In this document: positions 1-44,090 of the stretch, piece after piece | How positions within the stretch are numbered: position 1 is the stretch's first letter | Layout: every line of letters starts with the position of its first letter | Source: Gemmatimonas sp. | GTDB taxonomy: Bacteria; Gemmatimonadota; Gemmatimonadetes; Gemmatimonadales; Gemmatimonadaceae | Length of the DNA: 64,000 nucleotides | Reading direction: 5' to 3' (one strand) | Assembly (NCBI RefSeq): GCF_051059595.1 | Contig: NZ_CP050872.1 | Made by a program: the position numbers and the translations under genes | Notes under the pieces: model-generated | Seen by the model: only the letters and a program-made list of their open reading frames with translations | Told to the model about the DNA's origin: nothing | Databases searched by the model: none

Positions 1-3000
1 CGCTGGCCGTGATTCCCGCTGCGGGACTCTCGGCCCAACAAAACGCGACCGTGACCGGTCGGGTCGCCACAAACGGGGCTCCCCTTGGCGGTGCGCAGGT
101 TGGCATCGTGGAGTTGGGCGTCGGAAGCGTGACGGATGCGCAGGGTCGTTTCACCTTCACAGTGGACCCGGCGCGCGCCGGAGGCAAGCAGGTCACAGTG
201 CTCGCCCGCACGATCGGGTATCGCCCCGTCAAGCACATCATCACGCTGACGGCCGGCCGGATCGAGCAGAATTTCAACCTCGAGAAGGATGTGCTGAATC
301 TCGAGGCCGTGGTGACCACCGGCGTGTCGGATGCGACGTCGCAGAAAAAGACCACCTTTTCGGTGGCTGCCGTCGATAACGCCCAGATCAAGGAAGCACC
401 GGCGTCGTCGCCGCTCGGGGCCCTCAGCGGCCGCGTGGCCGGCGCCAGCGTCACGGCCGTGAATGGTGAGCCGGGTTCGGCCCCCCGCATCCGGCTGCGT
501 GGCCCCACGTCACTGACCGGGTCGCAGGACCCGCTCATCATCGTGGACGGCACCATCTCCCGTATCTCGCTCGCCGACATCAATGCGCAGGACATCGAGC
601 GCATCGAAGTCATCAAGGGCGCGGCGGCCAGCTCGCTGTACGGCTCTGACGCCGCCAACGGCGTGGTGCAGATCTTCACCAAGCGTGGCGCTAACCTTGC
701 GACCGGATCCACGCAGATCACCGTGCGCAATGAGTTCGGCTCCAACGACCTGCGCAAGTCGATTCCGAACAACTTCTCGCACCCCTACAAGGTGGGCGCG
801 AACGGCGACTTCCTGCGTGATGCCAACGGTAATCGCATTCAGGAAGACGACCGCATTTCGGACAATTCCTACAAGCAGACGTTCGACCAGCTCGGAGACG
901 TGTTCCGCTCCGGGCAGTTCATGACCAACTACCTCTCGGTGGGTCAGCGCAACGCCAACTCGAACTTCAACGCCTCGTTCGAGAACTCCCGTGACCAGGG
1001 TATCGCGAACATTCTGAGCGGCTACAACCGCCAGAACTTCCGCCTGAACCTGGACATGGAACTGCACCCCAAGCTCGACTTCCAGACGGGCGCCTTCTAC
1101 GGCCAGTCCAAGGCCGACCAGGCTGACGACAGCTCGGGCGATGCCTGGTTTGGTCTTCGGTTCCTTGAGCCGAACATCGACCTCAACGGCATCAACCCGG
1201 ACAGCACGCCGTACACCGCCGCCATTCGTCAGTCGCCGGCGTCGGGCAACGTGAGCAACCCGTTGTACCGCTGGAATACCATCAAGAACTCGGCCGATCG
1301 TGCCCGCTTCACGGGGCTGATCAAGGTCCGGTACCGTCCCACCAATTGGCTGACGGCTGAGGCGAACAGCAACTTCGACCGTGGCTCGCGGACGTTCCGT
1401 TCGTTTGTGCCGCTGGGCTACATTGGCTCCACTGGTACGGTCGGCAAGGGGAGCATCTCCAACAATGAGACGCTTACCCGGGCCTACAACCTCGGCGGAA
1501 CGCTGACGGCCGTGAAGAGCACGTCGTGGTTTACCAACACCACGAAGCTGGCCTGGGTGTACGAAGACCAGCAGAACTCGCAGACCTCGGTCGCGGCCAC
1601 GGCCCTCACGGTGCCGCGCGTGACGGAGTTCTCGGCGGCCTCGCGTGATCCCGAGAACCCGGTGATTCCGGGCTCGTTCTCGCAGCCTATTCGCAATCAG
1701 AACTTCTTTGCCATTACGACGTTCGATATCAAGGACCGCTACATCGTTGACGGTCTGATCCGTCAGGACCAGTCGTCGCTCTTTGGCAACGACCAGCGCT
1801 CCAGGACGTTCAAGCGTCTGTCCGGCGCGTGGCGCGTGAGCGAAGACATCACGCTTCCGGGCGTAGATGAATTCAAGCTGCGGGCGTCGTACGGTGAAGC
1901 GGGGCTCCGTCCGGTGTTTGACGCGCAGTACGAGCAGTTCGCCATTCAGGGCGGCAGCCCGGTCAAGATCACCTTGGGCAATCCGAACCTTCGCCCGGCG
2001 TTCTCCCGCGAAATTGAAGGCGGTTTCAACCTCAATTTCCTGAAGAACTTCAGCTTTGAGTACAGCTATTCCAGCAAGATCACCGACGACCAGATTCTGA
2101 ACGTGCCGGTGTCGTCGGCGACTGGTTTCCGCAACCAGTGGATCAATGCCGGTTCGCTGGAAGGGAAGACGCATGAAGTGCTGCTGGGTGCCGTCCTGGC
2201 CTCCAAGAAGGACTTCCTGTGGCGTGTCAACGTGGCCGGTGACCGCACGCGCCAGAAGGTGCGCAGTCTGGCAGTGCCCCCGTTCCTCGTCGGGCCCGTA
2301 GGCAACACCACGATCTTCCGTCTCGCGCCGGGCCAGCCGTTCGGTATTGTGTACGGCAGCTCGTGGGTGCAGTCGGCATCGCAGGTCGAGTCGATGGTTG
2401 CCGCCAATCGTCTGAGCGGCACCGCCGCCGACTACGTGCTGAACGAAGAAGGCTACTACGTGTCCAAGTCGGCGTGGCGCACCATCAACGAGCGCCCCAT
2501 CAAGTTCCTTGATGCTGACGGCAACTCGCTGCGTCAGATTGCCGACGTGAACCCCGACTTCAACCTGAACTTCAATACCCAGCTCAACTGGAAGAAGTTT
2601 GCGGTTACGGCCGTGGTGAACTGGGTGCAGGGTGGCCAGATCTACAACTACACGCGTCAGTGGCCGTTCTTCGACCAGCGTGACCCGGCGTTCGACCAGC
2701 GTAGCAAGCCGGAAGTGGAGAGGAAGCCCACCACGTACTACGCCACGTTCTACAACAACTTCGACGCCAACTCGTACTTCGTGGAAGACGGTTCCTACGT
2801 GCGTTTGCGCGAACTGGCCGTGAACTACGAAATCCCGTCGGCGATCACCAAGCGCTTCGGTATGAGCGATGGCCGTACGGCACGCCTCGGCGTGGTTGGC
2901 CGCAACCTCTTTACCAGCACCAAGTACAGCGGCTACGATCCCGATGTGTCCGGCGGCGGCAGTAACCCGTTTGCGTACCGCGTGGACTACTTCACGTACC

Positions 3001-3044
3001 CGATCTTCAAGACGTTCACGTTCATGCTGGAGCTCGGTCTGTGA
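1..3044 (+). CDS. SusC/RagA family TonB-dependent outer membrane transporter (5' end probably outside window)
   Basis: N-terminal carboxypeptidase-regulatory-like domain; plug motifs IRLRGPTSLTGSQDPLIIVDG and DIERIEVIKGAAASSLYGSDAANGVVQIFTK; C-terminal VEDGSYVRLRELAV and YSGYDPDV. The frame is open to the window edge. Confidence 0.93.
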   Translation, partial: LAVIPAAGLSAQQNATVTGRVATNGAPLGGAQVGIVELGVGSVTDAQGRFTFTVDPARAGGKQVTVLARTIGYRPVKHIITLTAGRIEQNFNLEKDVLNLEAVVTTGVSDATSQKKTTFSVAAVDNAQIKEAPASSPLGALSGRVAGASVTAVNGEPGSAPRIRLRGPTSLTGSQDPLIIVDGTISRISLADINAQDIERIEVIKGAAASSLYGSDAANGVVQIFTKRGANLATGSTQITVRNEFGSNDLRKSIPNNFSHPYKVGANGDFLRDANGNRIQEDDRISDNSYKQTFDQLGDVFRSGQFMTNYLSVGQRNANSNFNASFENSRDQGIANILSGYNRQNFRLNLDMELHPKLDFQTGAFYGQSKADQADDSSGDAWFGLRFLEPNIDLNGINPDSTPYTAAIRQSPASGNVSNPLYRWNTIKNSADRARFTGLIKVRYRPTNWLTAEANSNFDRGSRTFRSFVPLGYIGSTGTVGKGSISNNETLTRAYNLGGTLTAVKSTSWFTNTTKLAWVYEDQQNSQTSVAATALTVPRVTEFSAASRDPENPVIPGSFSQPIRNQNFFAITTFDIKDRYIVDGLIRQDQSSLFGNDQRSRTFKRLSGAWRVSEDITLPGVDEFKLRASYGEAGLRPVFDAQYEQFAIQGGSPVKITLGNPNLRPAFSREIEGGFNLNFLKNFSFEYSYSSKITDDQILNVPVSSATGFRNQWINAGSLEGKTHEVLLGAVLASKKDFLWRVNVAGDRTRQKVRSLAVPPFLVGPVGNTTIFRLAPGQPFGIVYGSSWVQSASQVESMVAANRLSGTAADYVLNEEGYYVSKSAWRTINERPIKFLDADGNSLRQIADVNPDFNLNFNTQLNWKKFAVTAVVNWVQGGQIYNYTRQWPFFDQRDPAFDQRSKPEVERKPTTYYATFYNNFDANSYFVEDGSYVRLRELAVNYEIPSAITKRFGMSDGRTARLGVVGRNLFTSTKYSGYDPDVSGGGSNPFAYRVDYFTYPIFKTFTFMLELGL

Positions 3045-4653
3045 GCCCCCTCACTCCGATGTTTTCATTCAAGTGCCGCGGGGCCGTTGGCCTCGCGATG
3101 GGCGCCATTCTGCTCGCCGGGTGCAATTCGCTCGACGTGGCGAATCCGAACGCGCCGGACGCCAAGCGCGCCCTCTCCGATCCTGCGGCCATCGAAGCGG
3201 TGGCGGGCGGTACCCTGCGGTCCTGGTTCAATACCTGGGACGGCATGGAAGGCGGCGGGCCGCTCAACACCATGGCGCAGGCGTACTCGGCGTCATGGAA
3301 CAACTTACAACATGAACTTCTACAGTTCGATAGACTGGTGACGGCACGCGAAACTACGCGGGCCTACCAGAACGACCTGGCCTCGGCGGGTCGTTCCACC
3401 ATGATCGGCTACTGGGAAGGGTATTACTCCACGCTGTCGTCGGCCGTGGACGTCCTCACGGCGATCCGCAAGAACAATCTGGCTCATCAACAACGCCGCC
3501 AATACCAAACGTGCGGAAGCGGTGGCGCAATTGATGCACGGTGCCTGCGCTCATGGGCATCGCGCTCAACTATGACAAGGGGTACGTGATCGACGAAACG
3601 TCGGACCTGTCGTCGCTCGCGTACAAGACGCGCAAGGACGTACGGGACGCGGCTGTCGCGTCGCTTGAAAAGGCCGCCACTCTGGCCGCGGCCAATTACG
3701 TTCAACACGCCTTCAGGATGGACGAACGGCAGCAGCTATACCAACGTGCAAATCGCGCAGTTGGCCCGCACGATGGCGGCCATGACCCTCGCCTATTATC
3801 CGCGAACCGCAGCCGAAAACGACGCGGTGGATTGGGCCAAGGTCTCCGCATTTGCCGCCGGCGGTATCTCGTCGTCCGGCGCCGGTTTTGACTTCAACTT
3901 CACCGGCGACGGCTGCAACTCGTGGTGCCACTGAGATCCTGCTACTGGTTCAATGGGTTCGACGGCGGGCGCGTCAGCACCCGCGTTGCGGCCATCTTGG
4001 ACCCGGCCACGCAGCGGACACCTTATCCGAGCGGTGGCAATCCCCAGCCGAACTCGCCGGACAAACGGTTGGGCGACGGTTCCTTCGGTCCGGATGACGA
4101 GGACTTTGCCGGATACTTTGGCACCAATCCCAAGACGGCACGCGCCGGGACGGACTTCGTGTACTCGCGTGAAGAGATCTTCCGTCCGGATCGCGGCATG
4201 TATCACCAGTCCAACATCGGACACATTCGCTATGATCGGTCGGGCGAGCAGTCGCCCCAAGGGATCTATGGTGGATTCGGGTTGGCGCCGGTGATCACTC
4301 GCCACCAGAACGACCTGCTCTGGGCGGAGGCCGAGCTGCGGCGTTCGGGGGGCAACCTCGCGACGGCCGCGTCGCTCATCAACAAGACCCGCGTGGATCG
4401 TGGTGGCCTCTCGGCCGCTACGGCTGGCGAGGGCGCTCCGTCACTCATCACCAAGCTGATCTACGAGCAGGAAGTGGAGTTGCTCGGCTTGGGTCCGGCA
4501 CCGTACTACCAGCGCCGTCGCGTGGCCGGTGGCCTGTTGGCGGGAACGCCGCGGGAAATGCCGGTGCCGGCCAAGGAGCTTGGCGTGAAGGGCGACGCGT
4601 TCTACACCTTCGGTGGCTCGGGTAACCCGGCCAACAGCCCGACCCCGCCGTGA
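3041..4653 (+). CDS. RagB/SusD family lipoprotein, broken by about 8 apparent single-base insertions (sequencing error or recent pseudogene)
   Basis: Lipobox LAGC then NSLDVANPNAP; overlaps the susC stop codon; SusD-like C-terminal motif LLWAEAELR...YEQEVEL. The ORF-track pieces 3041-3589, 3087-3341, 3541-3891, 3665-3934 and 3922-4653 join into one protein if single bases are removed. Confidence 0.8.
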
Positions 4654-4696
4654 TCCTGTGGGGGCCGGCTGGAAACAGCTGCTGAACGCAAAACCG

Positions 4697-4728
4697 GAGG
4701 CCGGGCAATCGCCCGGCCTCTGTGTTTT
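4697..4728 (+). terminator. Rho-independent terminator after the susCD pair
   Basis: Perfect 10-bp stem GAGGCCGGGC-AATC-GCCCGGCCTC followed by TGTGTTTT. Confidence 0.75.
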
Positions 4729-4785
4729 CAGAGTCGGGAATGGCAGCTACTGACAATTGTGCCCGTCTGCATTTTCTTTGTGTGC

Positions 4786-5775
4786 ATGAGACGTTCTTGT
4801 GCATCGTGGGCCCTGTTCTTCTCGGGGGTGGCCTTACTGGGCTGTTCCCCCGACTCCAGACCGTCGGCCCGTGCCCCGCTGGTCGGTTCGCTGCGCTTGG
4901 GCGGCGCGCCAGCGGCGCTCGCGGTGATGCTCGATAGCAGTGGTCCGGTGCAATACGGGCGAGTAGCCGGTGACACGACCACGCGCATGGTGATCCGTCC
5001 CCTTGCAGACGCCGTGGCCGACTATCGCCTGTGCGGGGTCGTCGCGGGAGCCGCCCGAATTCCCCCCGCGCTGTTGGCGCGGTGGGCCGTGGATACCAAC
5101 GCGCCGGTCCTGGCCTGGCGCGCGCTGACCGCGCCTGATGTGCAAGGGGTCCGGTTCCTCCAGCCGGGACGCAACGCGTTCTACTACTTCGAAGGCATTA
5201 CGCGCGATGGTGGGCGTCGCGTGAGTGTCCGTTGGCCGGTCGCTGCGGATCCCAGCCGTCCCGTACCGGTTGGCGCCCCGGACTCACTCATTGACGCGCT
5301 GTTGCGTCCGTCGCCACGCGCGTTGGATTCTCTGGTCGGGGCATTGACGATCGGTGATTCGGCAGGGGTGTCGTTGCCCGACGCGGTGTCCGACAGCAGT
5401 GTGCGCCGTGAGCGCGCTGTTCTGCTGGTGCGTGACCTGCCGATATATGAGGTCACGCTGTCCCCAGCATGCCCCAGGGCAACGGTGGCCGTACCGGTCT
5501 TGGCACGCACCGACGTACTGCTGCGAGTCCCCACCAGTCCAGGGGATCTCATTACCGCACACGCGGACGTCACCGCGGGGACTGTACGCATTGGCTTTGA
5601 CGAAGCACTCCCGCCGGAAGAGTTACGGCAGCGCGCCTCCGTTCGCTCGGCGGTCATTGAAGCGGGCGCGGCGCCGCGGGTGACGTTGCGTGTCCGTGTG
5701 CAGGTGGTGCCGCGCGCGCAGGAGACACAGCAAATGGTCTACCTCACACTCCACAAGACGCGCCCGGCTCGCTGA
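4786..5775 (+). CDS. Uncharacterised lipoprotein, paralogue A
   Basis: Lipobox LLGC. Shares RLCGV, FEG.T.DGG.RVS.RWPV and LDSLV motifs with 5835-6400 and 7742-8738. Confidence 0.7.
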   Translation: MRRSCASWALFFSGVALLGCSPDSRPSARAPLVGSLRLGGAPAALAVMLDSSGPVQYGRVAGDTTTRMVIRPLADAVADYRLCGVVAGAARIPPALLARWAVDTNAPVLAWRALTAPDVQGVRFLQPGRNAFYYFEGITRDGGRRVSVRWPVAADPSRPVPVGAPDSLIDALLRPSPRALDSLVGALTIGDSAGVSLPDAVSDSSVRRERAVLLVRDLPIYEVTLSPACPRATVAVPVLARTDVLLRVPTSPGDLITAHADVTAGTVRIGFDEALPPEELRQRASVRSAVIEAGAAPRVTLRVRVQVVPRAQETQQMVYLTLHKTRPAR

Positions 5776-5834
5776 GCACCAGCATCGCGGTCGTCTTGGC
5801 GCGATTTCGTTGATCCTGACGTTCCGCAAACGTC

Positions 5835-6400
5835 TTGATGCACGACACGCAATTTCAGTGTCGTTTCTTCCGTCCAGTCGTGTGCGGCGCCCTCGGGCAG
5901 ATCCTGAACGCAGGGGGGCTCGCCTGTCGTGACGCGAAACCGGTCGCATCCGGTGTGGACATCCTGCAGCTGCAGGACGCGCCGTCCGCATTGCCACTTT
6001 CCCTTCAAACAGACCGTGGTATCCAGAGGGGTCGCGACGCCACCAATACGCTTCGGCGACAACGTACGGCCAAGCGCCTCCATGATGATGCAACATCTCG
6101 GCTCTGCGGTGTCCTGGTGGGGCGCAACCGCCAGAGTGAAGCACGGCCCTTCGCGTGGCCCGTCGATTCGCTGCTGCCGCAGCTGGCGCCAAGAATCATC
6201 GTGGGAACGGACGTGTATGGGCTGCGGGTCCTGATTCCCGGGACAGAGGCATCCTACCGGTTTGAAGGATTCACCATCGACGGCGGGACGCGGGTCAGTC
6301 TGCGTTGGCCCGTTCGCTCGGATCGCAGCGTCCCGGCCACGGCGTCCGATCCGGAAATCGAAGCCGTCATCCAGCCGTCGACGCCGTCGCTTTGGCTTCC
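5835..6400 (+). pseudogene. Truncated paralogue B of the same lipoprotein family
   Basis: High similarity to paralogue C (DDATSRLCGVLVGR...FAWPVDSLLP...RWPVRSDRSVPATASDPEIEA). Similarity ends near 6380 and the C-terminal domain present in A and C is missing. Confidence 0.55.
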
Positions 6401-6914: not shown

Positions 6915-7614
6915 ATGGCGCTGTTGGAAGCGGATTGCGTCAGCAAGCACTATGGCGACCGCACCGTGCTCAATACGGCGTCGCTACGGGCACGCGCCGG
7001 GATGATCACGGCGCTCCTCGGCCGCAACGGGGCGGGGAAGAGCACGCTGTTGCGCTGTACCGTCGGCGAGATCGTCGCCGACCAAGGCAATATTCGTCTC
7101 GATGGGGCGACCGTCAGTACGGCCGCGGCTCGCGTGGCTTGCACGGCGCGGCGTCTGCTTCGTCCCCGACCGCGATCTCCTGCACCCCGCCGTGCCCATA
7201 GGGTCGCAATGCGCATGGGTCGCACGCGACTGCGGCACGGCAGCAGTCGTCGATACGCTGCTCAAGCAGTTCGGCATTTCGCGCTTGCGTGACGCGCGGC
7301 CGCGTTCTCTGTCCGGCGGCGAGCGTCGGCGCGCCGAGGTGGCGCTCGCGCTGCTCCTGGCCCCTCGCGTCTTGGTGCTCGACGAGCCGCTGCGTGGCAT
7401 AGCCCCGCTCGATGCCGAGGTCATTCTGGCCGCACTACGTCGGTTTGCCGAACAGGGTGGCGCCGTCCTTCTCACGGGACACGAACTACCGCTCTTCATG
7501 GCGTCGGTCGACGCGGTGACGTGGTGCCACGCCGGTCGTACGCGGGAGTTCGCCTCCGCGAGCGCGGCCATGCACGATTTCGCCTTCCGACGGGATTTCC
7601 TACCCGCCGGCTGA
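6915..7614 (+). CDS. ABC transporter ATP-binding protein (one frameshift near 7110)
   Basis: Walker A GRNGAGKST in 6906-7292; signature LSGGE, Walker B VLVLDEP and H-loop TGHE in the +1 frame 7102-7614. Confidence 0.85.
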
Positions 7615-7741
7615 CTGTCTGGTCGCGTGACATCCAGTGGGGCCACCGTCGCAATTGTGGACGGAGCGCAGCAGTTTTCCGTGATGTTGTCGTCGGTCCC
7701 GACGGCCTGGTTCACGGAAAGTCAGCATGGGTGGAGATCGT

Positions 7742-8738
7742 ATGCAGGGGCATGTGCCAGAGTCGCGACGACACCGCACGCCGAGGATTCGTCGTGCGGG
7801 TCTGTTGACCGCTGCTGCGGGGCTCGCTGCGGCGACGGCGTGTGCCGAGCCGTCGTCGACCTCCGGGGCGACGCCATTGACGCTCGTGGCAACGCCCGCG
7901 TCGACATCACTCACCCTGCGTGATGCCGCCAACGGTCAGGAGGGCGTAGCCTCGACGGACGGCGAGGTCCGCCTCCGCACAGCGCTTCGCGTTGATGACG
8001 ACGCGACTGCACGGCTGTGCGGCGTCCTGGTGGGACGCAGTCGACTCACCGAGCGACTGCCCTTTGCGTGGCCCGTCGACAGCATGCTGCCGCATCTCGC
8101 GCCCAAGATCCTTGCCGGTGGTGACGTGTATGGCGTGCGCTTGCTCGTACCCGGCGTGAATGCGGCATATCACTTCGAAGGCTTCACGACCGATGGCGGA
8201 ACACGGGTGAGCGTACGCTGGCCCGTCCGGTCGAGTGGTCCGGTGCCGGCCACGGCATCCGACCCGGAAATCGAAGCGGGACTCACGCCGGCACCGGCTA
8301 CCCTCGATTCGCTCGTCACGTCGTTGCGTTATCGCGATGCCGGGGAGCGCACCGCCTGGGCGTCGACCCGTGGCGCGAGCGACCGCATGCAGGCGAGCCG
8401 CGCGGTACGCCTCGTGCGCGACGTGCCGTTCTTTCCCATTGGCTTCTCGACGGCGTGTCGCGACGCCACCTTCCGTACCGACGTCAATGCCGGGACGGAA
8501 AAAGCCATCCGCGCTGCTGGTCGACAAGGGTGACCGCATCGCCGCGTCGGTGTCGCTGCCCGGCAGCGAAGCGTCCGTGAGGCTCGTCATGGCTGGTGAC
8601 GAGTCGAAGGTCGGCACGACGACGTCGCTGACCGCGCCTGACAGCGGCTTCGTGACACTCCTCGTTGGCTACACCGCGACCAGCGGTGCCCCGCCGCGCC
8701 AGAGTGTCCTGCTCCGCGTTACGTCGTCGGCGCATTGA
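7742..8738 (+). CDS. Uncharacterised lipoprotein, paralogue C (one frameshift near 8500 at an A5 run)
   Basis: Signal peptide ending AATAC; GGAG RBS. ORF 7727-8533 continues in frame 8235-8738 (LLVDKGDRIAASV...), which resembles the C-terminal domain of paralogue A. Confidence 0.65.
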
Positions 8739-36987: not shown

Positions 36988-37083
36988 CCCCGAGAGCCTG
37001 TACGCCGTTCCATCCGGCGTGGTAATTTCGTGCAGCGCCTCCGTGTTTGCAGTAACGCACTCCCCCCGAACCACCATCGACGA

Positions 37084-38322
37084 ATGTCTGGTCAGCGCCT
37101 CGGTATCGGATTCATCGGATCCGGCTTCAACGCCCGCTTTCACATGCAGGGCTTCCGCTACGTTCGCGACGCCGACGTGCTCGGCGTGTGGAGCCCCAAC
37201 GCCAAGAACGCCGCATCAGCGGCCAAGTACGCGCGTGATCTCGACGTAGGCGACGCCAAGGCGTACAAGACCATTACCGACATGGTCGCCGATCCACGCA
37301 TCGACGCCATCTGGCTCAACGGCCCCAATCACGCGCGCATCGAAAACGTCGAAGAAATCGTCGACGCGGTGACGAGCGGCAAGGGCACGCTCAAGGGCAT
37401 CGCGTGCGAGAAGCCGCTCGGGCGCACCGTGGCCGAAGCGAAGCATATTCTCAAGCTCGTCGAGAAGGCCGGCATCATGCACGGCTATCTCGAGAATCAG
37501 TTCTTCTCGCCGCAGGTCGCCGTTGGCCACAACCTCATCTGGAAGCGCGGCGCCGCCAACACGGGCCGTCCGTATCTCGCGCGTGCCGCCGAAGAGCACA
37601 GCGGTCCCCACGGCCCGTGGTTCTGGAACGGCATTCAGCAGGGCGGCGGTGTTCTCAACGACATGATGTGCCACTCGGCGCTCGTCGTGCGCCAGCTGCT
37701 CTCCGAGCCCGGCAAGCCGCTTTCCGACCTCAAGGTCAAGCGCGTCACCGGTCACATCGCGTCGCTCAAGTGGACGCAGAAACACTACGCGGCGCAACTC
37801 AAGCGCGACATGAAGGTCGATTTCCTCAAGGCGCCGTCGGAAGACTTCGCCAGTGTGAACATCGAATTCGAAACGCCCGAAGGCCGCATGGCCATTGGTG
37901 AAGCCACCACGTCGTGGAGCTTCGTCGGACCTGGCCTCCGGCTCAGCGCCGAGTTGCTCGGCCCCGAATACTCGATGAAGTGGAACACGCTCGAGTCGGG
38001 ACTCGATCTCTTCTTCTCACGCGCGGTGAAGGGCAAGACCGGCGAAGATATCGTCGAGAAGCAGATGGCCGAGCAGGGGCAGATGCCGGTGGTGGTGAAC
38101 GAAGCGATTGCCTATGGCTACGAAGCCGAAGACAACCACTTCGTGCGCGCCTTCCTGAGCAAGGAGAAGCCGCTGCTCACGTGGCACGACGGTCTCGATG
38201 TCGTGCGCATTCTCATGCACGCGTACAAGAGCGCCGAGTTGGGCAAGACGCTCGAGTACAAGGAGAATGGCGTCGACAAGTTCGTGCCGCAGGTCGGGCA
38301 GGGGACTTGGAAGCCACGGTAG
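37084..38322 (+). CDS. Gfo/Idh/MocA family oxidoreductase
   Basis: IGFIGSGF, CEKPLG, GGGVLNDMMCH. Confidence 0.9.
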   Translation: MSGQRLGIGFIGSGFNARFHMQGFRYVRDADVLGVWSPNAKNAASAAKYARDLDVGDAKAYKTITDMVADPRIDAIWLNGPNHARIENVEEIVDAVTSGKGTLKGIACEKPLGRTVAEAKHILKLVEKAGIMHGYLENQFFSPQVAVGHNLIWKRGAANTGRPYLARAAEEHSGPHGPWFWNGIQQGGGVLNDMMCHSALVVRQLLSEPGKPLSDLKVKRVTGHIASLKWTQKHYAAQLKRDMKVDFLKAPSEDFASVNIEFETPEGRMAIGEATTSWSFVGPGLRLSAELLGPEYSMKWNTLESGLDLFFSRAVKGKTGEDIVEKQMAEQGQMPVVVNEAIAYGYEAEDNHFVRAFLSKEKPLLTWHDGLDVVRILMHAYKSAELGKTLEYKENGVDKFVPQVGQGTWKPR

Positions 38323-38326
38323 AGTC

Positions 38327-39703
38327 ATGCTGAGTCGCATCGAGATCCGAAACTTTCGGAGTATCCGGCGGGCATCCGTTTCGATACCCGCTAGTGGCAT
38401 TTGCGCCGTTGTTGGAGCAAATGGCTCGGGTAAAAGCAATCTCGTTCGAGCTCTCAGATTTTTGGCGTCCATCACGCATAATGGGCTAGATGGTGCCGTA
38501 ATCGAGGCGGGGGGTGCTGAAGGACTGTTCCCCAAAGCAATTCCTTCGGAGCGTTGGCATGTGGAGAATACCTCGATTGTTTCGAGATTCTCTCCGTCCG
38601 GGCTTTCACCGCTGCTAAAGACGCCTCGGATTAAGTGCGATAGTCTTGTCCATTCCATCGAGCTTGGGATTCGATCTCGAGCAACGCAAGAGCAAGGGCA
38701 GTTCGACTTGCTTGAAGAGACTTTAGAATTTTCTGGTGGAGTGTCTACGGATGCTCAACTTGACATTCAAGACGTCGCGCTCGTCGGACGACCAAGATTG
38801 CAGATCAAGAAGGGGCAGAAGGGTGGCTTGGTCGCTCAGACGGAGAGGTTCCCGGAGGGATCCCGCAGGGTGGCCCTCGAATGGCTGGGCCTCGCCGATA
38901 TCTTTGTCCGACCCGACGCAGAGGGGAATTTTGCGGACGAGGAGGTTGCCCAGTGGCTAGATCGACTAGGGCGTCCAGAACAGCAAGGGGGCTCTGCTGA
39001 CTCCTTCTTGAGTAGGCAACCTGGGAATCCACTTCTGTTCTCGCCACTAGTAGACGAACTCGCTGACTACTTTCGGCGACTGCTGTGGTTTGACCTTCAG
39101 TTAGACGTTCTGCGGCGAGAGCAGCCCAGATCCAGACCCGGTGTGCTCGGAAGTAATGGATCTGGATTGCCGGCCGCCGTCAATCTGTTGGCTAAGGATT
39201 TCGACGCGCACAGGCGAGTTCGGGGTGCACTTCGGGAGATCGCTCCATTAATCCAAGGCTTCCAAGTGAAGGTTCTTGGTTCCACCAAGGAGTACATAGC
39301 CTTTGCTGAAACCGCAGCCCTGCGGGAAGTAGAATCATGGGAAGCATCTGATGGAACGCTACGGACGCTTGCATTGCTCGTCGCAGTCGCCACCGCACGG
39401 AGCGATTCGATTCTTCTCTTGGAAGAGCCGGAGATTGGTCTTCATCCTTGGGCGGTCAGAAGCATGATGTCGTTCATTCGAGAGGAGGTCGAAAGGAGGC
39501 ACTTGCAGGTTCTAATAACGACTCATTCAGAGCATGTAATTCGAGAACTCGGTGCTGCCGAGCTGCTTGTCGCTGATAGAGTCGCAGACCAAGGTACGGA
39601 ATTCGTTGCCGCATATGACCTAGTCGGAGAGCTAAGTGGCGACGAGCTCGCGGACCTGTGGATTCGCGGTCTTCTTCGAGGGGTTCCTGAGGGGGCAGAC
39701 TGA
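38327..39703 (+). CDS. AAA_21/AAA_15-type ABC ATPase (putative conflict/defence ATPase)
   Basis: IRNFRSI, Walker A GANGSGKSN, signature-like ASDGTLR, Walker B LLEEPEIGLHP, H-loop TTHS; low GC. Confidence 0.88.
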   Translation: MLSRIEIRNFRSIRRASVSIPASGICAVVGANGSGKSNLVRALRFLASITHNGLDGAVIEAGGAEGLFPKAIPSERWHVENTSIVSRFSPSGLSPLLKTPRIKCDSLVHSIELGIRSRATQEQGQFDLLEETLEFSGGVSTDAQLDIQDVALVGRPRLQIKKGQKGGLVAQTERFPEGSRRVALEWLGLADIFVRPDAEGNFADEEVAQWLDRLGRPEQQGGSADSFLSRQPGNPLLFSPLVDELADYFRRLLWFDLQLDVLRREQPRSRPGVLGSNGSGLPAAVNLLAKDFDAHRRVRGALREIAPLIQGFQVKVLGSTKEYIAFAETAALREVESWEASDGTLRTLALLVAVATARSDSILLLEEPEIGLHPWAVRSMMSFIREEVERRHLQVLITTHSEHVIRELGAAELLVADRVADQGTEFVAAYDLVGELSGDELADLWIRGLLRGVPEGAD

Positions 39704-40339
39704 ATGTCGCCAAGGAAGGTTCGATTGGCATTTGTCGTTGAAGGACGAGGGGAGCGACATGCCATTCGTACGTTAGCTGCTAGGATCGCTGGTCATGACT
39801 GTTCTCATCTTGTGGTGTCATGCGCGAACGGTGCCGGAAAGATCTATTCCGATCTCGAGGGGGAGCTCGATAAGGTCGTAACCGCATGTCTTCCTCTGCA
39901 CATTATTGTACTCGCCGACTCAAGAGATCTAGTTCGGACAAAAAAACGTAGCTGTGTGGCACTTCGCGAAGAGCTCTCGCAGAGAGCAAACAACTGGATT
40001 CTGAAGGCCCAACAGCTTGGCTCTCCGGTCGAATCGGTAAAGATTGTTCTTGTCGTCCAGCAGTTTGAAACGTGGCTGCTCGCAGACTTCGGCGTTTTCA
40101 GAGAAAACGTACGGCTTAAGGGAAGTCAAAGTTCTTATCTGGGATGGGGTCGGATTGATGATGACCTCCCTAACCCGCTTGACTGGCTTAAGGCCAATCT
40201 CCACCCTCGCGAGAGAGCTAAAGACGTGAATAGAGGGAAGACGATTCTGTCTCAGGCAGATCTAGAGCTGCTCCAGCAGAGATCACACTCATTCTCAGTT
40301 TTCGTTCGTGCAGTTAAAGCAGTATCACCTCTCTACTAA
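39704..40339 (+). CDS. DUF4276/RloB-like TOPRIM-fold protein
   Basis: FVVEGRGE, VLADSRD, FETWLLAD, RSHSF; the start directly abuts the ATPase stop codon (TGA-ATG). Confidence 0.72.
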   Translation: MSPRKVRLAFVVEGRGERHAIRTLAARIAGHDCSHLVVSCANGAGKIYSDLEGELDKVVTACLPLHIIVLADSRDLVRTKKRSCVALREELSQRANNWILKAQQLGSPVESVKIVLVVQQFETWLLADFGVFRENVRLKGSQSSYLGWGRIDDDLPNPLDWLKANLHPRERAKDVNRGKTILSQADLELLQQRSHSFSVFVRAVKAVSPLY

Positions 40340-40502
40340 GGTGAGTTCCCATGCGATGGTGAAAGCCGCTTGCTCATGTCTGAAAGCGGACTTGGCAGCC
40401 TTTAGGTGTGAGGCCACGGGTAAACCCTGAACTCGCAGCCTGGATACAAGACCCGGAAACGATCCGTTTCGAGTTCTGGGTTCTGGCTCTAACTTCAGAC
40501 TG

Positions 40503-42152
40503 TTACGGCGTAACCTTCGCGCGATCAAGCTTTCTATAATTCACGTCCAGTGCATCCAACCGCTTGAGGTGCACTGGCAGGCGGGTCATGAAGTCGCCGA
40601 AGTCGCGCCGGTCTTTGCGGCTCCACAACGCTTCGCACAGCGCCACCAGACGCGGGTACGCCATGTACTCGAGCTGACGGGGGTCGGGGATATACTCCGT
40701 CCACAACTGGGCCTGCGCCCCCAGAATGTGCTTCGCTTCTTCTGGCGTGAGCGACGGCGGCACCGGCTCGAAGCCGTACACCTTCTCGATGTTGGTAAAG
40801 CCGCCAATCGCCAGCGGCTCGCTCTTCTTGTCCTGCGACTGGTAATGATCGAAGTACGTATGGCTCCCCGGCGCCATCACGACATCGTGTCCTTCTTTCG
40901 CGGCGGCAATGCCACCGTCCATACCACGCCAGCTCATCACGGTGGCGTTGGGGGCGAGCCCGCCTTCGAGAATCTCATCCCATCCAATGAGACGGCGTCC
41001 CTTCTTGGTAAGGAACGTGTCCATCTGCCGGATGAACCAGCTCTGCATCTCGTGCTCGTCTTTCAATCCGAGTGACTTGATGCGCGCCTGAATTTGTGGG
41101 CTGGCCTTCCATTGGTCCTTCACGGCTTCGTCGCCGCCAATGTGAATCCACGGCGACGGAAACAGCATGAGCACTTCGCTGAGCACGTCCTGCATGAACG
41201 CGACGCTGCTGTCCGATGGATTGAGGATGTACTTGCTCACGCCCCAGATGGTGCGCAGTCCCGGAACGGAATCGGTGGTGCTGGCCAGAAACGGATACGC
41301 GTACACCGCGGCCTGTACGTGCCCCGGCATCTCGATTTCCGGCACGACCGTGATCATGCGCTCGGCGGCATACGCCACCACTTCGCGCACATCATCCTGC
41401 GTGTAGAAACCGCAGTGGGGCTTGCCGTCGAACACCTGCTTGGCCGGATCGTCGGTGTGCGAGCCCACGAGTGTCTGCGGGCGGCACGAACTCACTTCGG
41501 TGAGGCGCGGGTACTTCTTGATTTCAATGCGCCAGCCCTGATCTTCGGTGAGGTGCCAGTGAAAGCGATTGAGTTTGTGTCGCGCCAGCAGGTCGATGTA
41601 TTTCTTGACGAACGCCTTCGGCATGAAGTGCCGCGATACATCGAGGTGCGACCCGCGCCAGGTGAAGCGCGGCGCGTCTTCGATGTGCACCGCGGGGACC
41701 GACCACACGGTGCCCGGAATAGGCGCGTCGCGATAGATGGCAGGGGGCAGCAGCTGCTTGACCGTCTCGAGTGCGTAGAACGCGCCGGCCGGCGTGCTGG
41801 CCTCGGCGACGATGCCGTTGCTCGTCACGTCCAGCCGGTACGCTTCGTCGCCCAATCCTTTCACCTGCCGCAGTACGATGCCCTGCGCGGCGGCTGTGGC
41901 GGGACGCACCACAAGATCGAAACCCGTGGGGTTCGCCACATCGCGCACGAAGCGGCGGGCTACGGACGCAAACGCCGGACTGGCAGCAATGGGCGTGTTG
42001 CGCGTGATGGTGTAGGCGCCGGTCTGGGGCGTGAGCACACCTGGGCGCGGAATGACGGCGTACCGATCGCCGAGGGCGCCTTGCGCGGAGAGTTCACGGG
42101 CAGCGACAGAGAGCGTAAGCGCCGCCAGGAGGCGTACAGCAACGGTCGTCAT
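40503..42152 (-). CDS. Beta-N-acetylhexosaminidase (GH20)
   Basis: HLDVSRHF, HWHLTEDQGWR, EIEMPGH, HIGGDE, LWTEY. Confidence 0.95.
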   Translation of the reverse strand: MTTVAVRLLAALTLSVAARELSAQGALGDRYAVIPRPGVLTPQTGAYTITRNTPIAASPAFASVARRFVRDVANPTGFDLVVRPATAAAQGIVLRQVKGLGDEAYRLDVTSNGIVAEASTPAGAFYALETVKQLLPPAIYRDAPIPGTVWSVPAVHIEDAPRFTWRGSHLDVSRHFMPKAFVKKYIDLLARHKLNRFHWHLTEDQGWRIEIKKYPRLTEVSSCRPQTLVGSHTDDPAKQVFDGKPHCGFYTQDDVREVVAYAAERMITVVPEIEMPGHVQAAVYAYPFLASTTDSVPGLRTIWGVSKYILNPSDSSVAFMQDVLSEVLMLFPSPWIHIGGDEAVKDQWKASPQIQARIKSLGLKDEHEMQSWFIRQMDTFLTKKGRRLIGWDEILEGGLAPNATVMSWRGMDGGIAAAKEGHDVVMAPGSHTYFDHYQSQDKKSEPLAIGGFTNIEKVYGFEPVPPSLTPEEAKHILGAQAQLWTEYIPDPRQLEYMAYPRLVALCEALWSRKDRRDFGDFMTRLPVHLKRLDALDVNYRKLDRAKVTP

Positions 42153-42160
42153 CGGAACGG

Positions 42161-42865
42161 TTACGTGAGTTGCAGCGCGCGAACGACATCGCGCACAATG
42201 GTCGGATCGGTGGCCCGTGCGTGCACCTGACGCAGCTCGGTGCGTTGTACCAGCTCCCGCACCGTCGCGCCACGCACATTGCCGCCCGCGAGAATCGTAA
42301 GCCGGTCACCGGCGCGCTGACGCAGGGCGTTGAGCGTGGCGGCACCGTCGAGCGCAGTGGGCGCCTGCCCGCTGGTCAGAATCATGTCGACGCCCGCATG
42401 CATGAGCGCATGCAGCGAGGCAAATGGGTCGGGCGTGCGGTCGAAGGCGCGGTGGAATACCACCTTCATGGGGCGCGCCAGTGCTGCGAGTTGCGTGAGC
42501 TGCTGTTCGTGCACCGTGTCGTCCTGCTGCAGCGGCCCCAGCACAATGCCGTCCACGCCCAGCGTGCGCGCGGTCACGATGTCATTGGCCATCACGTCGA
42601 GATCGTCGTCGCAATAGCGGAAGTCCCGCGTCTGCGGGCGGATCATGATGTGCAGCGGAATGGTGATCAGGTCACGACATCGCGCAATGAGGCCGAGCGA
42701 TGGCGTGGTGCCACCATCGCCCGGGCCGCACAACTCGATCCGGCCGACCCCCGCGTCCTGCGCCGCGAGTGCCGTGTACACCGAATCGCAACACGCCTCG
42801 ACCAGCACGCCACCCGCCAGCGGGGCGACGGGTACAGGCGCGTCCAAGGCGCGTAAGGGTGTCAC
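42161..42865 (-). CDS. cutC: Copper homeostasis protein CutC family TIM barrel
   Basis: VEAC, RIELC, GGTTPS, HIMIRP, FHRAFD, ILTSG, AGG; GTG start 2 bp after the MFS stop codon. Confidence 0.9.
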   Translation of the reverse strand: MTPLRALDAPVPVAPLAGGVLVEACCDSVYTALAAQDAGVGRIELCGPGDGGTTPSLGLIARCRDLITIPLHIMIRPQTRDFRYCDDDLDVMANDIVTARTLGVDGIVLGPLQQDDTVHEQQLTQLAALARPMKVVFHRAFDRTPDPFASLHALMHAGVDMILTSGQAPTALDGAATLNALRQRAGDRLTILAGGNVRGATVRELVQRTELRQVHARATDPTIVRDVVRALQLT

Positions 42866-42866
42866 C

Positions 42867-44090
42867 TCAGTGCGCCGCGGCGGCGCGATTGACCGTCGCC
42901 GATGGACGGAAGAGGACCAGGAACACGACAAACACGACGAGCGCGCCGATACCTGCCATCTGCCACACCTGCAACCAGTCGTGCGCCGGGGCGCCAGTGG
43001 CTGAGGTGGTCGCATAACGGTTCACGACACTGCCGGACACGGACGCGCCAACGAAATAGCCGACGCCGTTCGTGACGAGATTGAGGAAGCCCTGTGCGGC
43101 CGCGCGAATCTTCGGGCCAGCCACTTCGTCGGTGTAGATCTGGCCAGCGACGAAGAAGAAGTCGTAGCAGATGCCGTGCAACAGAATGCCGGCATAAATG
43201 AGCGCCATGCCACCACCCGCATCACCACGGCTGAACGCAAAGTAGCGGAGCCCCCACGCCAGCATGCCAACCAGCATGATCCACTTGATCCCGAGGCGGC
43301 GGAGCGCGAAGGGCAGCATCAGCATGAAGCCGACTTCCGACGCCTGGCCGAAGGACATGATGCCCGCGGCGTTCGGCACGCCGATTTCATTCATGAACGG
43401 ATTCGCGAAGGCGTAGTAGAACTGCAGTGGAATACACAGCAGGAACGACCCCAGCACGAAGATGACGAAGTCGGGGCGCTTGAGGAGCTGCAAGGCATCG
43501 AGCCCCAACGCGTCACGCGCGCTGAAGGGAGCGCCGGCCGCACGCGGTGGCGTGTGTGGCAGCAGCAACGCAAAGAGGCCGAGCGCCACCGATCCCGCGG
43601 CCGAGATCTGCATGGGAATGGCGAGCTTGTCGGCCTTCAGCACGAAGCCCACGAGGACGCCGGAGGCCACGATCCACCCGATCGTGCCGAAGACCCGGAT
43701 GATCGGGAAATCGCGCGTCGAGTCGGTCACGTTGTGCAACGAAATGGAATTCGTGAGCGACAGCGTGGGCATGTAGCAGAACGCGTACGCGAGCAGCAAC
43801 GGATAGAACGCACTCCACTCCGTCTGCTGCGACATGAGAAACATCAGCGCTGCACCAACCAGATGCAGAACGGCCAACAGTTTTTCCGAGGCAAAGAAGC
43901 GGTCGGCCACGATGCCCATGAAAAACGGCGAAACGATCGCCGCAATGGCCGTCGCGCCATACGCGCTACCGATCTGGGTGTCGGTGAACCCGCGCGTCGC
44001 GCCCAGATACGTGCCCATCGTCACGAACCACGATCCCCACACGAAGTACTGCAGGAACATCATGATCGACATTCTGGTCTTCGTGCTCAT
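42867..44090 (-). CDS. MFS transporter, nucleoside:H+ symporter (NupG-like) family
   Basis: [34 protein letters not shown]; 12-TM pattern. Confidence 0.9.

Follow-up and report, generated by a model that had tools for sequence, protein, structure and literature searches.

A divergent HEC-01-type ABC ATPase–DUF4276 gene pair, a candidate anti-phage module, on a horizontally acquired cassette of a freshwater Gemmatimonas-like strain

The closest described counterpart of the gene pair considered here is HEC-01 (Hma-embedded candidate 01), which was found through its embedding in Hma and defined as an ABC ATPase accompanied by a TOPRIM protein whose metal site resembles that of OLD (Payne et al., bioRxiv 10.1101/2024.01.29.577857). 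The experimental record of HEC-01 is conflicting. The pair tested in the original study failed to defend E. coli MG1655 dRM from the BASEL phages, and most HEC candidates showed no enrichment near defence systems (Payne et al., bioRxiv 10.1101/2024.01.29.577857). On the other hand, a HEC-01 pair from a cold seep conferred protection on E. coli B against one or more of the phages T4, T5, and T7; this was a spot assay with one representative, and the text available to us describes no mutants.

DUF4276, the domain of the second HEC-01 protein, has already been published as a member of the Toprim superfamily. It is also found in MADS from Pseudomonas aeruginosa, where Mad3 and Mad4, an AAA_15/21 ABC ATPase and a DUF4276 protein, are genetically required for defence; the PARIS paper lists Mad3/Mad4 among the ABC-ATPase/TOPRIM systems. 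The complete MADS operon has eight genes, among them a methyltransferase gene and the mandatory MAD6–8. In PARIS (AriA/AriB), the ABC ATPase and the TOPRIM nuclease are likewise split, and the ATPase senses a phage protein and frees the nuclease, with the result that tRNA is cleaved. The same two activities are fused in OLD and in GajA of Gabija, and AbiL (AbiLi/AbiLii) and RloA/RloB are two-gene combinations of an ATPase and a TOPRIM-like (RloB) protein, often located within type I restriction-modification (R-M) loci.

The locus analyzed here lies in a stretch of 64 kb of Gemmatimonas sp. DNA, hereafter the window, and comprises the following features:

38327..39703, plus strand: gene A, ABC ATPase (AAA_21/AAA_15; PADLOC HEC-01A, PDLC04179), 458 aa, assigned by profile matches, invariant motifs, and the structural model
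39690..39696, plus strand: Shine-Dalgarno-like run GAGGGGG within the end of gene A, 8–14 nt upstream of the gene B ATG
39704..40339, plus strand: gene B, DUF4276 protein (PADLOC HEC-01B, PDLC04198), TOPRIM-like putative metal-dependent nuclease, 211 aa, assigned by profiles, conservation, and the structural model

Given their Pfam matches and numerous homologues (338 for gene A at E<=1e-10, 106 for gene B at E<=1e-3), the two genes are real rather than chance open reading frames, and both are intact, with each family-invariant residue present. The reading frame of gene A extends from the ATG at 38327 to the TGA at 39701–39703; a longer frame, 38198–39703, was rejected, as the additional part only overlaps the end of the upstream gene (TAG at 38320–38322). 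The gene A stop codon abuts the ATG of gene B at 39704 on the same strand, which, together with the GAGGGGG run, indicates coupled translation of A and B. The spacing is tight in all homologous loci examined, the two genes overlapping by at most 8 nt or being separated by at most 11 nt. The GC content is 0.551 for gene A and 0.505 for gene B vs 0.62–0.68 in neighbouring genes, and the GC3 values are 0.534 and 0.481, respectively, vs 0.78–0.84 in the flanking genes. Thus, the description given by the first-pass annotation, that is, a 458-aa ATPase with complete motifs and a long variable insert, a 211-aa partner directly after it (TGA-ATG) with TOPRIM-like acidic motifs and E.WLLAD, and a low GC content relative to the neighbours, agrees in each of these respects with our data, including those detailed below.

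Gene A encodes a member of the ABC ATPase superfamily, with all catalytic motifs and the ABC-type head fold. The protein matches Pfam families AAA_21 (6e-30) and AAA_15, and its motifs GANGSGKSN (residues 30–38), SDGT (341–344), EEPEIGLHP (366–374), and TTHS (398–401) all fall on invariant columns of the subfamily alignment of 27 sequences. According to the same alignment, the full ordered ABC set is invariant, namely, Walker A G30–N38, Q-loop Q266, signature S341-D-G343, Walker B E366-E367, D-loop L372-H373-P374, and H-loop H400. The insert, approximately residues 95–250, is poorly conserved, partly beta-rich, and modelled with lower confidence. The best fold matches of the predicted structure (pLDDT 85.5) are PtuA and the heads of SMC, Rad50, and RecN, with the fold-match probability of 1.00. 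The nearest relative is 36% identical; the exact-sequence look-up of the protein yielded a 2.5-kb metagenome contig as the sole match, and the coding DNA had no exact match in the DNA reference look-up.

Gene B matches the Pfam family DUF4276 over the full length (1.7e-10, profile positions 1–191 out of 192), and its nearest relative is 42% identical. The motifs VEGRGE (E13, E17), ADSRD (D72, D75), and ETWLLAD (E122, W124, D128) are invariant or conserved in at least 90% of 78 homologues, and K173 is conserved as well. With high confidence, the protein is predicted to adopt a four-stranded alpha/beta fold, the closest counterpart of which is the C-terminal region of the OLD nuclease (TOPRIM plus helical). 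In the model (pLDDT 94.4), strands are formed by residues 4–12, 37–40, 62–72, and 111–117, with helices between them; invariant E13 is positioned directly past strand 1, followed by E17, also invariant, and past strand 3 lies D72-S-R-D75, which is DxxD vs the canonical DxD, D72 being invariant and D75 conserved in at least 90% of the homologues. Among the PDB folds, 6njx, the C-terminal region of OLD, ranks first (E 1.8e-4, TM 0.48/0.50 over the full length); the model also matches 6nk8, and TM across the two structures is 0.44–0.50. These TM values are modest, and hence the TOPRIM likeness holds at the superfamily level. Since the sequence searches of solved structures gave no significant match for either the single sequence or the 78-sequence profile, the tie to OLD comes from the fold comparison. 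OLD-like_TOPRIM is the second-best Pfam match in 14 of the 78 homologues, always below the threshold. In the viral structure library, the only full-length match is an RloB-like protein (TM 0.44, 230 columns), ranked fourth by E-value (1.7e-2). Matches to the RadA/Rad51 fold were discarded, being partial (about 125 columns, TM <0.34) and judged to be generic alpha/beta similarity.

By comparison with the PADLOC models, the pair is a divergent copy of the named candidate anti-phage pair HEC-01. Gene A matches HEC-01A PDLC04179 nearly end to end (4.9e-75, residues 1–455 on profile positions 1–456 out of 459), and eight other HEC-01A sub-models match it at 1e-30 to 1e-39; gene B matches HEC-01B PDLC04198 (2.2e-28, residues 6–206 on profile positions 3–204 out of 211), and its PADLOC matches are confined to HEC-01B models and mad4. 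The locus thus shows three features of HEC-01, a HEC-01A match, a HEC-01B match, and two adjacent and co-oriented genes. As in HEC-01, an ABC ATPase (AAA_21/AAA_15) is followed on the same strand by a TOPRIM-like DUF4276 protein of about 200 aa, and homologues of the window pair are embedded in modification-based systems. The differences are that the window copy is stand-alone, has a metabolic neighbourhood, and comes from a freshwater Gemmatimonadota strain, that it is strongly diverged from all database sequences (36% identity for A and 42% for B to the nearest relatives), and that the experimentally tested representatives, with their conflicting results, are other sequences.

This assignment changes what can be said about novelty. 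The ATPase–DUF4276 pairing, initially taken to be untested, is not new: it already has a name, a detection model, a published structural interpretation, two functional tests (one negative and one positive), and a genetically validated relative, Mad3/Mad4. At the level of sequence, the first-pass statement that no such pair is reported from this phylum does not hold either: the window itself belongs to Gemmatimonadota, and HEC-01 pairs from different clades are present in MAGs of Gemmatimonadales and Longimicrobiales, in one Gemmatimonadales MAG followed by a type I REase.

The pair shares features with several other systems and belongs to none of PARIS, MADS, OLD/Gabija, and AbiL as these are defined. 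The likeness to MADS is weak by the PADLOC models (mad3, 2.2e-24 for gene A; mad4, 0.0099 for gene B), the NCBIfam MAD3 score of gene A is 96 bits vs the 420-bit cutoff, and neither a methyltransferase nor MAD6–8 is present near the window pair. AriB of PARIS is a DUF4435/OLD-type TOPRIM protein of about 35 kDa, and gene B has no match to AriB/DUF4435 at E<=0.1 (PADLOC) or E<=1 (Pfam); gene A matches AriA only via generic AAA_21/AAA_15-type models, and AriA structures are absent from its top 50 structural matches. For OLD and Gabija GajA, where the C-terminal region of OLD best fits gene B, the sequence likeness is confined to the P-loop head (6p74; GajA/Old models at about 1e-19) and the sub-threshold OLD-like_TOPRIM match; moreover, the ATPase and the TOPRIM protein are separate ORFs in the window, and no GajB helicase is found near the pair. 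AbiLi matches gene A at 1.2e-25, much more weakly than HEC-01A, and gene B is DUF4276 rather than RloB, with an RloB match in only one of the 78 homologues (0.033) and no PADLOC match of gene B to AbiLii. Finally, PtuA of Septu and of retrons Eco7 and Ec78 provides the closest solved structures to gene A (E about 5e-12, TM 0.4–0.48), but the partner of PtuA is the HNH nuclease PtuB, not a TOPRIM protein, and the NCBIfam PtuA score of gene A is 25 bits vs the cutoff of 500.

The pair is carried by a cassette inserted between two convergent genes:

38316..40503, no strand: inserted cassette, 2188 bp, consisting of 11 nt, gene A, gene B, and 164 nt of 3' DNA; GC 0.54
40340..40502, no strand: non-coding DNA at the 3' end of the cassette, separating the stop codons of gene B and the convergent GH20 gene
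37084..38322, plus strand: left flank, Gfo/Idh/MocA oxidoreductase, conserved Gemmatimonadota backbone; context, outside the system
40503..42152, minus strand: right flank, GH20 beta-hexosaminidase, convergent with the oxidoreductase; context, outside the system

The cassette is foreign and was acquired by horizontal transfer: one freshwater Gemmatimonas-like strain carries it, and close relatives do not. In the lake metagenome run X3, a contig at 37.6x fuses position 38315 to position 40504, and the coverage of the cassette is 0–4x; in four related contigs, the gene order is kept and the A–B pair is absent. Together, the empty-site contig at about 38x, the 0–4x coverage of the cassette, and the four contigs lacking the pair identify a strain-specific insertion of 2188 bp. 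In the empty-site genomes, the GH20 gene is 1–144 bp from the oxidoreductase gene, and blastn homology to the empty-site contigs ends at 38310–38322 and restarts at 40523–40530. The first 11 nt of the cassette comprise the last codon and the stop of the upstream gene, followed by a 4-nt spacer; the true start of this gene is likely near 37084, as its homologues are 411–412 aa long. The cassette stretch (2.18 kb) has the lowest GC content at that size across the 64-kb window (0.536 vs the mean of 0.659, sd 0.032). The locus is a clear natural example of a presence/absence polymorphism, in which a defence-type cassette differs between co-occurring freshwater Gemmatimonadota strains; the insertion point is known to within a few bases, and the same lake yielded the allele without the cassette.

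There is no tRNA in the 64-kb window, no integrase or transposase adjoins the pair, no convincing direct or inverted repeats flank it, and no recognisable mobile-element end was found in the 3' tail, whose folding relative to shuffles is not significant (z -1.8). The promoter and terminator scan gave counts at or below the shuffle expectation, and none were identified. Within the window, no defence genes are located beside the pair, the neighbours being carbohydrate and oxidoreductase genes. The sole repeat is the tetranucleotide ACGG at both cassette edges (38316–19 and 40505–08), possibly a chance occurrence.

Taking this into account, we consider it probable that the pair is a stand-alone HEC-01-type module, in which an ABC ATPase is translationally coupled to a nuclease with the DUF4276/TOPRIM fold, acquired horizontally as a 2.2-kb cassette where two convergent housekeeping genes meet and present in a part of the population. 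As judged from sequence, an anti-phage function of the pair is likely. By analogy, PARIS is the best mechanistic template. As in PARIS, OLD, Gabija, and MADS, A and B may form a complex in which the nuclease is kept inactive by A; a signal of infection (a phage protein or a state of the DNA) would be sensed by the variable insert of A, and ATP binding and hydrolysis would release or activate B. The latter would then cut nucleic acid using the putative E13/E17–D72/D75 metal site, and phage replication would be stopped directly or via growth arrest (abortive infection). The substrate may be tRNA, following the example of PARIS and OLD, or DNA, which is the target in Gabija and is suggested by the genetics of MADS. 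The first-pass annotation had likewise proposed a defence module with an ATPase sensor and a nuclease effector; the defence part of this proposal is favoured by the HEC-01 matches, the OLD-like fold, the R-M embedding of homologues, and the empty site, and the mechanistic part draws on analogy. Any HEC-01 member proving active would merit dissection of its trigger, substrate, and stoichiometry.

The subfamily of the window pair is divergent and mostly comprises Bacteroidota, and a B-type partner is located directly downstream of A in eight out of eight subfamily loci. In two out of five related genomes with annotated neighbours, the pair resides in or beside a type I R-M locus: in Rufibacter, the gene order is HsdM-A-B-HsdS-HsdR, and in Saprospiraceae the pair adjoins type I R-M and TerY-P-like genes. 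In contrast, four out of eight subfamily loci (the window, L001, L084, and L085) are stand-alone, with no modification gene nearby. The constant partner and the occasional location within type I R-M provide independent support by association for HEC-01. In L001, too, the gene upstream of the pair is of the Gfo/Idh/MocA family; a conserved linkage was considered and rejected, because the identity between the two upstream proteins is only 20% over 124 residues, making this a coincidence.

A rather unlikely alternative, though the best among the rivals, is that the pair is an accessory restriction/effector module that needs a DNA-modification system, as Mad3/Mad4 do in MADS and as pairs embedded in Hma or type I R-M may, and that reads methylation rather than a phage protein; the orphan copy in the window would then be inert or dependent on a methyltransferase encoded elsewhere. 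This would fit the same-subfamily pairs lying between hsdM and hsdS/hsdR or adjoining type I R-M, the discovery of HEC-01 via Hma embedding, and the lack of defence by an isolated HEC-01 in E. coli (Payne et al., bioRxiv 10.1101/2024.01.29.577857). In MADS, deletion of the methyltransferase gene mad5 is tolerated only in combination with that of mad2 or mad3, which implicates the ATPase in methylation-dependent toxicity. However, half of the subfamily loci examined are the stand-alone ones listed above, neither window gene is damaged in spite of the foreign origin of the pair, protection of E. coli B was achieved by a stand-alone HEC-01, and the matches to the MADS models are weak (MAD3 and mad4 scores above).

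The R-M embedding also allows for a more specific reading, speculative and to our mind of low probability, in which HEC-01 pairs, the stand-alone window copy among them, would be a second line of defence guarding R-M: the insert of A would read anti-restriction proteins or a by-product of R-M evasion, similarly to PARIS, and B would be a tRNA-cleaving abortive effector, not a DNase. This would explain both the frequent embedding in Hma and type I R-M and the failure of one representative when faced with phages that lack the proper trigger. If so, the insert of about 150 residues in this subfamily would recognise a trigger not yet described.

Returning to the stand-alone module, we find it improbable that the pair is instead a selfish, toxin–antitoxin-like addiction module, with B as a toxic nuclease, A as its neutraliser, and cassette maintenance rather than defence as the role. 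The compact two-gene cassette with coupled translation and its sporadic, horizontally transferred distribution would suit such a role; the Pfam label of AAA_21 mentions "AbiEii toxin, Type IV TA system," and the OLD preprint places ABC+TOPRIM modules in multiple toxin–antitoxin and Abi systems. However, this label only names a family and carries no functional test, the R-M embedding points to defence, and toxin–antitoxin action and abortive-infection defence are compatible. No relatives of gene B were found on catalogued plasmids (PLSDB) or phages (INPHARED); for gene A, INPHARED phages also yielded none, plasmids yielded a single 28% match on one Shinella replicon, and IMG/VR contained only distant ATPases, one of them with a B-like partner. 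In two of the lake samples examined, X2 and X3, the cassette is a minority allele, covered at 0–4x vs about 8–9x (X2) and about 40x (X3), a pattern that is not indicative of strong addiction.

A housekeeping DNA-repair or chromosome-maintenance pair with no conflict role, an ATPase of the RecF/SMC type with a TOPRIM partner as in RecF/RecR, is highly improbable: the N-terminus of gene A does match the SMC_N and RecF models, and the heads of SMC, Rad50, and RecN are among its structural matches, but this likeness extends no further than the generic P-loop head. Sister strains whose neighbouring protein is 84–96% identical lack the pair, and its codon usage is of a foreign type. Its distribution across phyla is patchy among the matches listed in the genome-collection scan with the ATPase alignment, which were mostly distant AAA_21 ATPases, and the best matches of both proteins are to defence-specific models.

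Two adjacent genes, A and B, make up the pair, and the open reading frames, motifs, TGA–ATG abutment and low GC content reported for them by the first-pass annotation were accurate, all being found as described:

38327–39703, plus strand, gene A, ABC ATPase of 458 aa (ATG at 38327, TGA at 39701–39703)
39704–40339, plus strand, gene B, DUF4276 protein of 211 aa (ATG at 39704, abutting the TGA of gene A)

The TAG of the upstream gene occupies positions 38320–38322, with the gene A ATG four bases further on; the mechanical list gives an ORF of 501 aa here, a mere upstream extension of A that runs into this neighbouring gene. A ribosome-binding-like run, GAGGGGG, lies 8–14 nt upstream of the gene B ATG, and the sequence indicates that translation of the two genes would be coupled.

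Against PADLOC-DB, A matched the HEC-01A sub-model PDLC04179 (E-value 4.9e-75) over residues 1–455 of 458, and B matched the HEC-01B sub-model PDLC04198 (2.2e-28) over residues 6–206; the other matches of B in this database were to HEC-01B models, weakly to mad4, and to one 190-residue model labelled HEC-01A (E-value 1.8e-4), and to nothing else. Matches of A to the AriA, AbiLi, GajA, Old, NsnB, and PtuA models were far weaker than that to HEC-01A and came via the common ATPase head. With HEC-01A and HEC-01B models matched at near full length, the novelty proposed for the pair is lost and, judged by sequence similarity, A–B is a divergent copy of an already catalogued HEC-01 kind. We regard it as likely that A–B is a HEC-01-family defence cassette, and hold any particular substrate or trigger with much less confidence.

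In HEC-01 ("Hma-embedded candidate 01"), as originally described, an ABC ATPase is paired with a TOPRIM protein that is separate from it and shares the OLD metal-binding site; in E. coli MG1655 dRM the system gave no protection against the BASEL panel (Payne et al., bioRxiv 10.1101/2024.01.29.577857). A later study reports protection of E. coli B by a HEC-01 of cold-seep origin, effective against one or more of the phages T4, T5, and T7; the two published functional tests disagree. DUF4276 has already been described as a new member of the Toprim superfamily and a Mad4 homologue, and in MADS resistance drops upon deletion of mad3 or mad4, the mad5 methyltransferase being deletable only if mad2 or mad3 is also removed. 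Given the published HEC-01 tests and the DUF4276/MADS literature, the initial statement that the ATPase–DUF4276 pairing was untested is wrong: HEC-01 has been tested twice, and Mad3/Mad4 are genetically needed in MADS.

Judged from its motifs, A is an ABC ATPase that is intact and carries a variable insert. Pfam assigns AAA_21 (6e-30) and AAA_15 (5e-21), and the SMC_N, RecF, and ABC_tran matches are limited to the P-loop head. Among 338 database relatives (E-value at most 1e-10), its own subfamily comprises about 45 clusters of 450–490 aa with E-values from 1e-64 to 1e-44, followed by a gap to 1e-20; the closest non-self relative is 36% identical. In a 27-sequence alignment of the subfamily, Walker A (G30–N38), Q266, the SDG signature (341–343), Walker B E366/E367, the LHP D-loop, and H400 are invariant, and the stretch from about residue 95 to 250 varies. 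The AlphaFold model has pLDDT 85.5, lower in the insert, and its closest folds are PtuA (Septu, retron Eco7/Ec78) and the SMC, Rad50, and RecN heads (TM 0.4–0.48, probability 1.00).

B matches DUF4276 across the entire profile (1.7e-10). Searched exhaustively with phmmer, 1.84 billion representatives yielded 106 relatives (E-value at most 1e-3), the closest being 42% identical; in 78 homologues, E13, G14, E17, D72, W124, K173, and S196 are invariant, and D75, E122, D128, and D152 are conserved in at least 90%. Strands 4–12, 37–40, 62–72, and 111–117 of the model (pLDDT 94.4, pTM 0.91) alternate with helices and are followed by a helical C-terminal part. E13 directly follows strand 1 and D72/D75 directly follow strand 3, where the Glu and the acidic motif of TOPRIM lie; the spacing is DxxD, not DxD. 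The top PDB fold match, at full length, is the C-terminal TOPRIM-plus-helical region of Xanthomonas OLD (6njx, E-value 1.8e-4, TM 0.48/0.50), with Burkholderia OLD (6nk8) as a further match (TM 0.44/0.46); numerous RadA/Rad51 matches were partial, with TM below 0.34, and were rejected. The best full-length match in a viral structure library, fourth by E-value (1.7e-2), is a RloB-like protein (TM 0.44). At the sequence level, B had no significant match among solved structures; Pfam OLD-like_TOPRIM gave sub-threshold matches in 14 of the 78 homologues (best 7e-4) and to B itself (0.031, residues 9–46). B is TOPRIM-like and intact, its acidic cluster and lysine are conserved, and its predicted likeness to OLD is at the fold level.

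The proposed mechanism, an ATPase sensor controlling a nuclease effector, is a reasonable inference by analogy with PARIS, OLD, Gabija, and MADS. By this analogy, A would oligomerise, bind B and keep it inactive, its insert would detect an infection cue, an ATP-driven rearrangement would release or activate B, and B would cut tRNA or DNA using a metal site formed by E13/E17 and D72/D75.

Same-subfamily pairs occur in the following contexts:

L082, Rufibacter latericius, between hsdM and hsdS/hsdR
L083, Saprospiraceae MAG, adjoining type I R-M fragments, a Fic/RhuM gene, and a TerY-P-like cluster
L084, Chryseobacterium shandongense, stand-alone
L085, metagenome contig, stand-alone
L001, 7.3-Mb contig, stand-alone

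In L083 (positions 1–6307), the TerY-P-like cluster (VWA/TerY_C, protein kinase, Macro, and TerC genes) and the Fic/RhuM gene mark the locus as a dense defence island. Relatives of A–B recur inside R-M loci, and in the window no tRNA, integrase, or defence genes were found near the pair. An R-M/MADS-type accessory effector, orphaned in the window genome, is an unlikely reading of A–B; similarly doubtful is the idea that HEC-01 pairs protect R-M systems by detecting anti-restriction factors, the TOPRIM protein being a tRNase. A and B are strictly linked: a B-type gene directly follows the ATPase in all eight subfamily loci with available downstream DNA (the window, L001–L003, L082–L085), the two genes overlapping by up to 8 nt or standing up to 11 nt apart. 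That A–B is a purely selfish toxin–antitoxin module seems quite improbable.

The claim that no such pair is reported from this phylum fails, as a Gemmatimonadales MAG (HEC-01A 3e-171, HEC-01B 8e-64, then a type I restriction enzyme) and a Longimicrobiales MAG (1e-125 and 5e-61, respectively) carry HEC-01 pairs, of clades other than that of the window pair.

The HEC-01-type pair lies among ordinary metabolic genes. It is preceded by genes for a SusC-like TonB-dependent receptor, SusD, DUF4397, an AMP-binding enzyme, and a Gfo/Idh/MocA oxidoreductase, and followed, on the other strand, by GH20, CutC, a nucleoside:H+ symporter, and a 3-keto-disaccharide hydrolase. The oxidoreductase is 84–96% identical to Gemmatimonadota proteins, Gemmatimonas sp. 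among them, and thus the window belongs to Gemmatimonadota. GC content is 0.551 in gene A and 0.505 in gene B vs. 0.62–0.68 in neighbouring genes, and GC3 is 0.534 and 0.481 vs. 0.78–0.84; the GC content of the A–B stretch, 0.536, is the lowest of any 2.18-kb segment in the 64-kb window (mean 0.659, sd 0.032).

Four Gemmatimonadota contigs with oxidoreductase orthologues (L086–L089) have the same gene order without the ATPase and DUF4276 genes, the oxidoreductase and GH20 genes being directly convergent, 1–144 bp apart; DNA homology of the window to these contigs ends at 38310–38322 and restarts at 40523–40530. Freshwater and lake metagenomes of 2016–2024 contain cassette DNA. In run X1, depth is even, about 2–8x, over the insert and most of the flanks; in run X3, it is 38–56x in the flanks vs. 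0–4x in the insert, and a 37.6x contig joins 38315 straight to 40504 across 5 nt (...GAAGCC GTAAC TACGGCG...), the oxidoreductase and GH20 stops essentially abutting. Taken together, the junction contig, depths, and empty-site contigs show that the pair is a 2188-bp insertion (38316–40503), polymorphic between co-occurring strains. As the convergent stops abut in the cassette-free sister strain, the cassette inserted where next to no intergenic DNA separated the two genes, and it now provides the oxidoreductase with its final codon and stop (CGG TAG). In two of the examined lake samples (X2, X3), the empty allele greatly predominates. The cassette is foreign in origin and strain-variable; a housekeeping repair function is scarcely credible for it. 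No mobile-element ends were found at its edges; a 4-nt ACGG at both could be chance. Close relatives of A or B were not found on catalogued plasmids or phages, and IMG/VR contigs contained one distant pair only, at the end of IMGVR_UViG_3300019124_000089 (positions 1–1754; an ATPase, then a B-like protein, A2 profile 1e-12), so HEC-01-like pairs may occasionally be (pro)phage-borne.

Several minor observations concern the neighbourhood. One cluster is of polysaccharide-utilisation type, here in a Gemmatimonadota genome:

29599–34932, SusC-like TonB-dependent receptor (N-terminal CarboxypepD_reg), SusD-family, and DUF4397 proteins in a row

With the downstream GH20, CutC, symporter, and hydrolase genes, it looks like a glycan/amino-sugar utilisation neighbourhood. 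Mechanical ORFs are overlong for the oxidoreductase (37030–38322) and CutC (42161–43015): the former probably starts near 37084, because orthologues have 411–412 aa vs. 430 aa in the ORF, and the latter, of 284 aa vs. 219–234 aa in orthologues, shares about 150 nt with the symporter ORF. Short (12–19 nt) imperfect direct repeats with inconsistent spacing at 37945–38257, towards the 3' end of the oxidoreductase gene (e.g., AGCGCCGAGTTG at 37945 and 38230), probably reflect chance or codon-level repetition. The related contig L088 has an extra metallo-beta-lactamase-fold gene (6985–7941) between the AMP-binding and oxidoreductase genes, absent from the window, which makes it a second indel of this neighbourhood; its precomputed matches include PF23023 (Anti-Pycsar_Apyc1), a label that may reflect only the generic MBL fold. 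Elsewhere, on a Candidatus Parabeggiatoa contig (L027, 1276–5717), an ATPase–DUF4276 pair of HEC-01-like type occurs twice in tandem, with about 1.1 kb between the copies.
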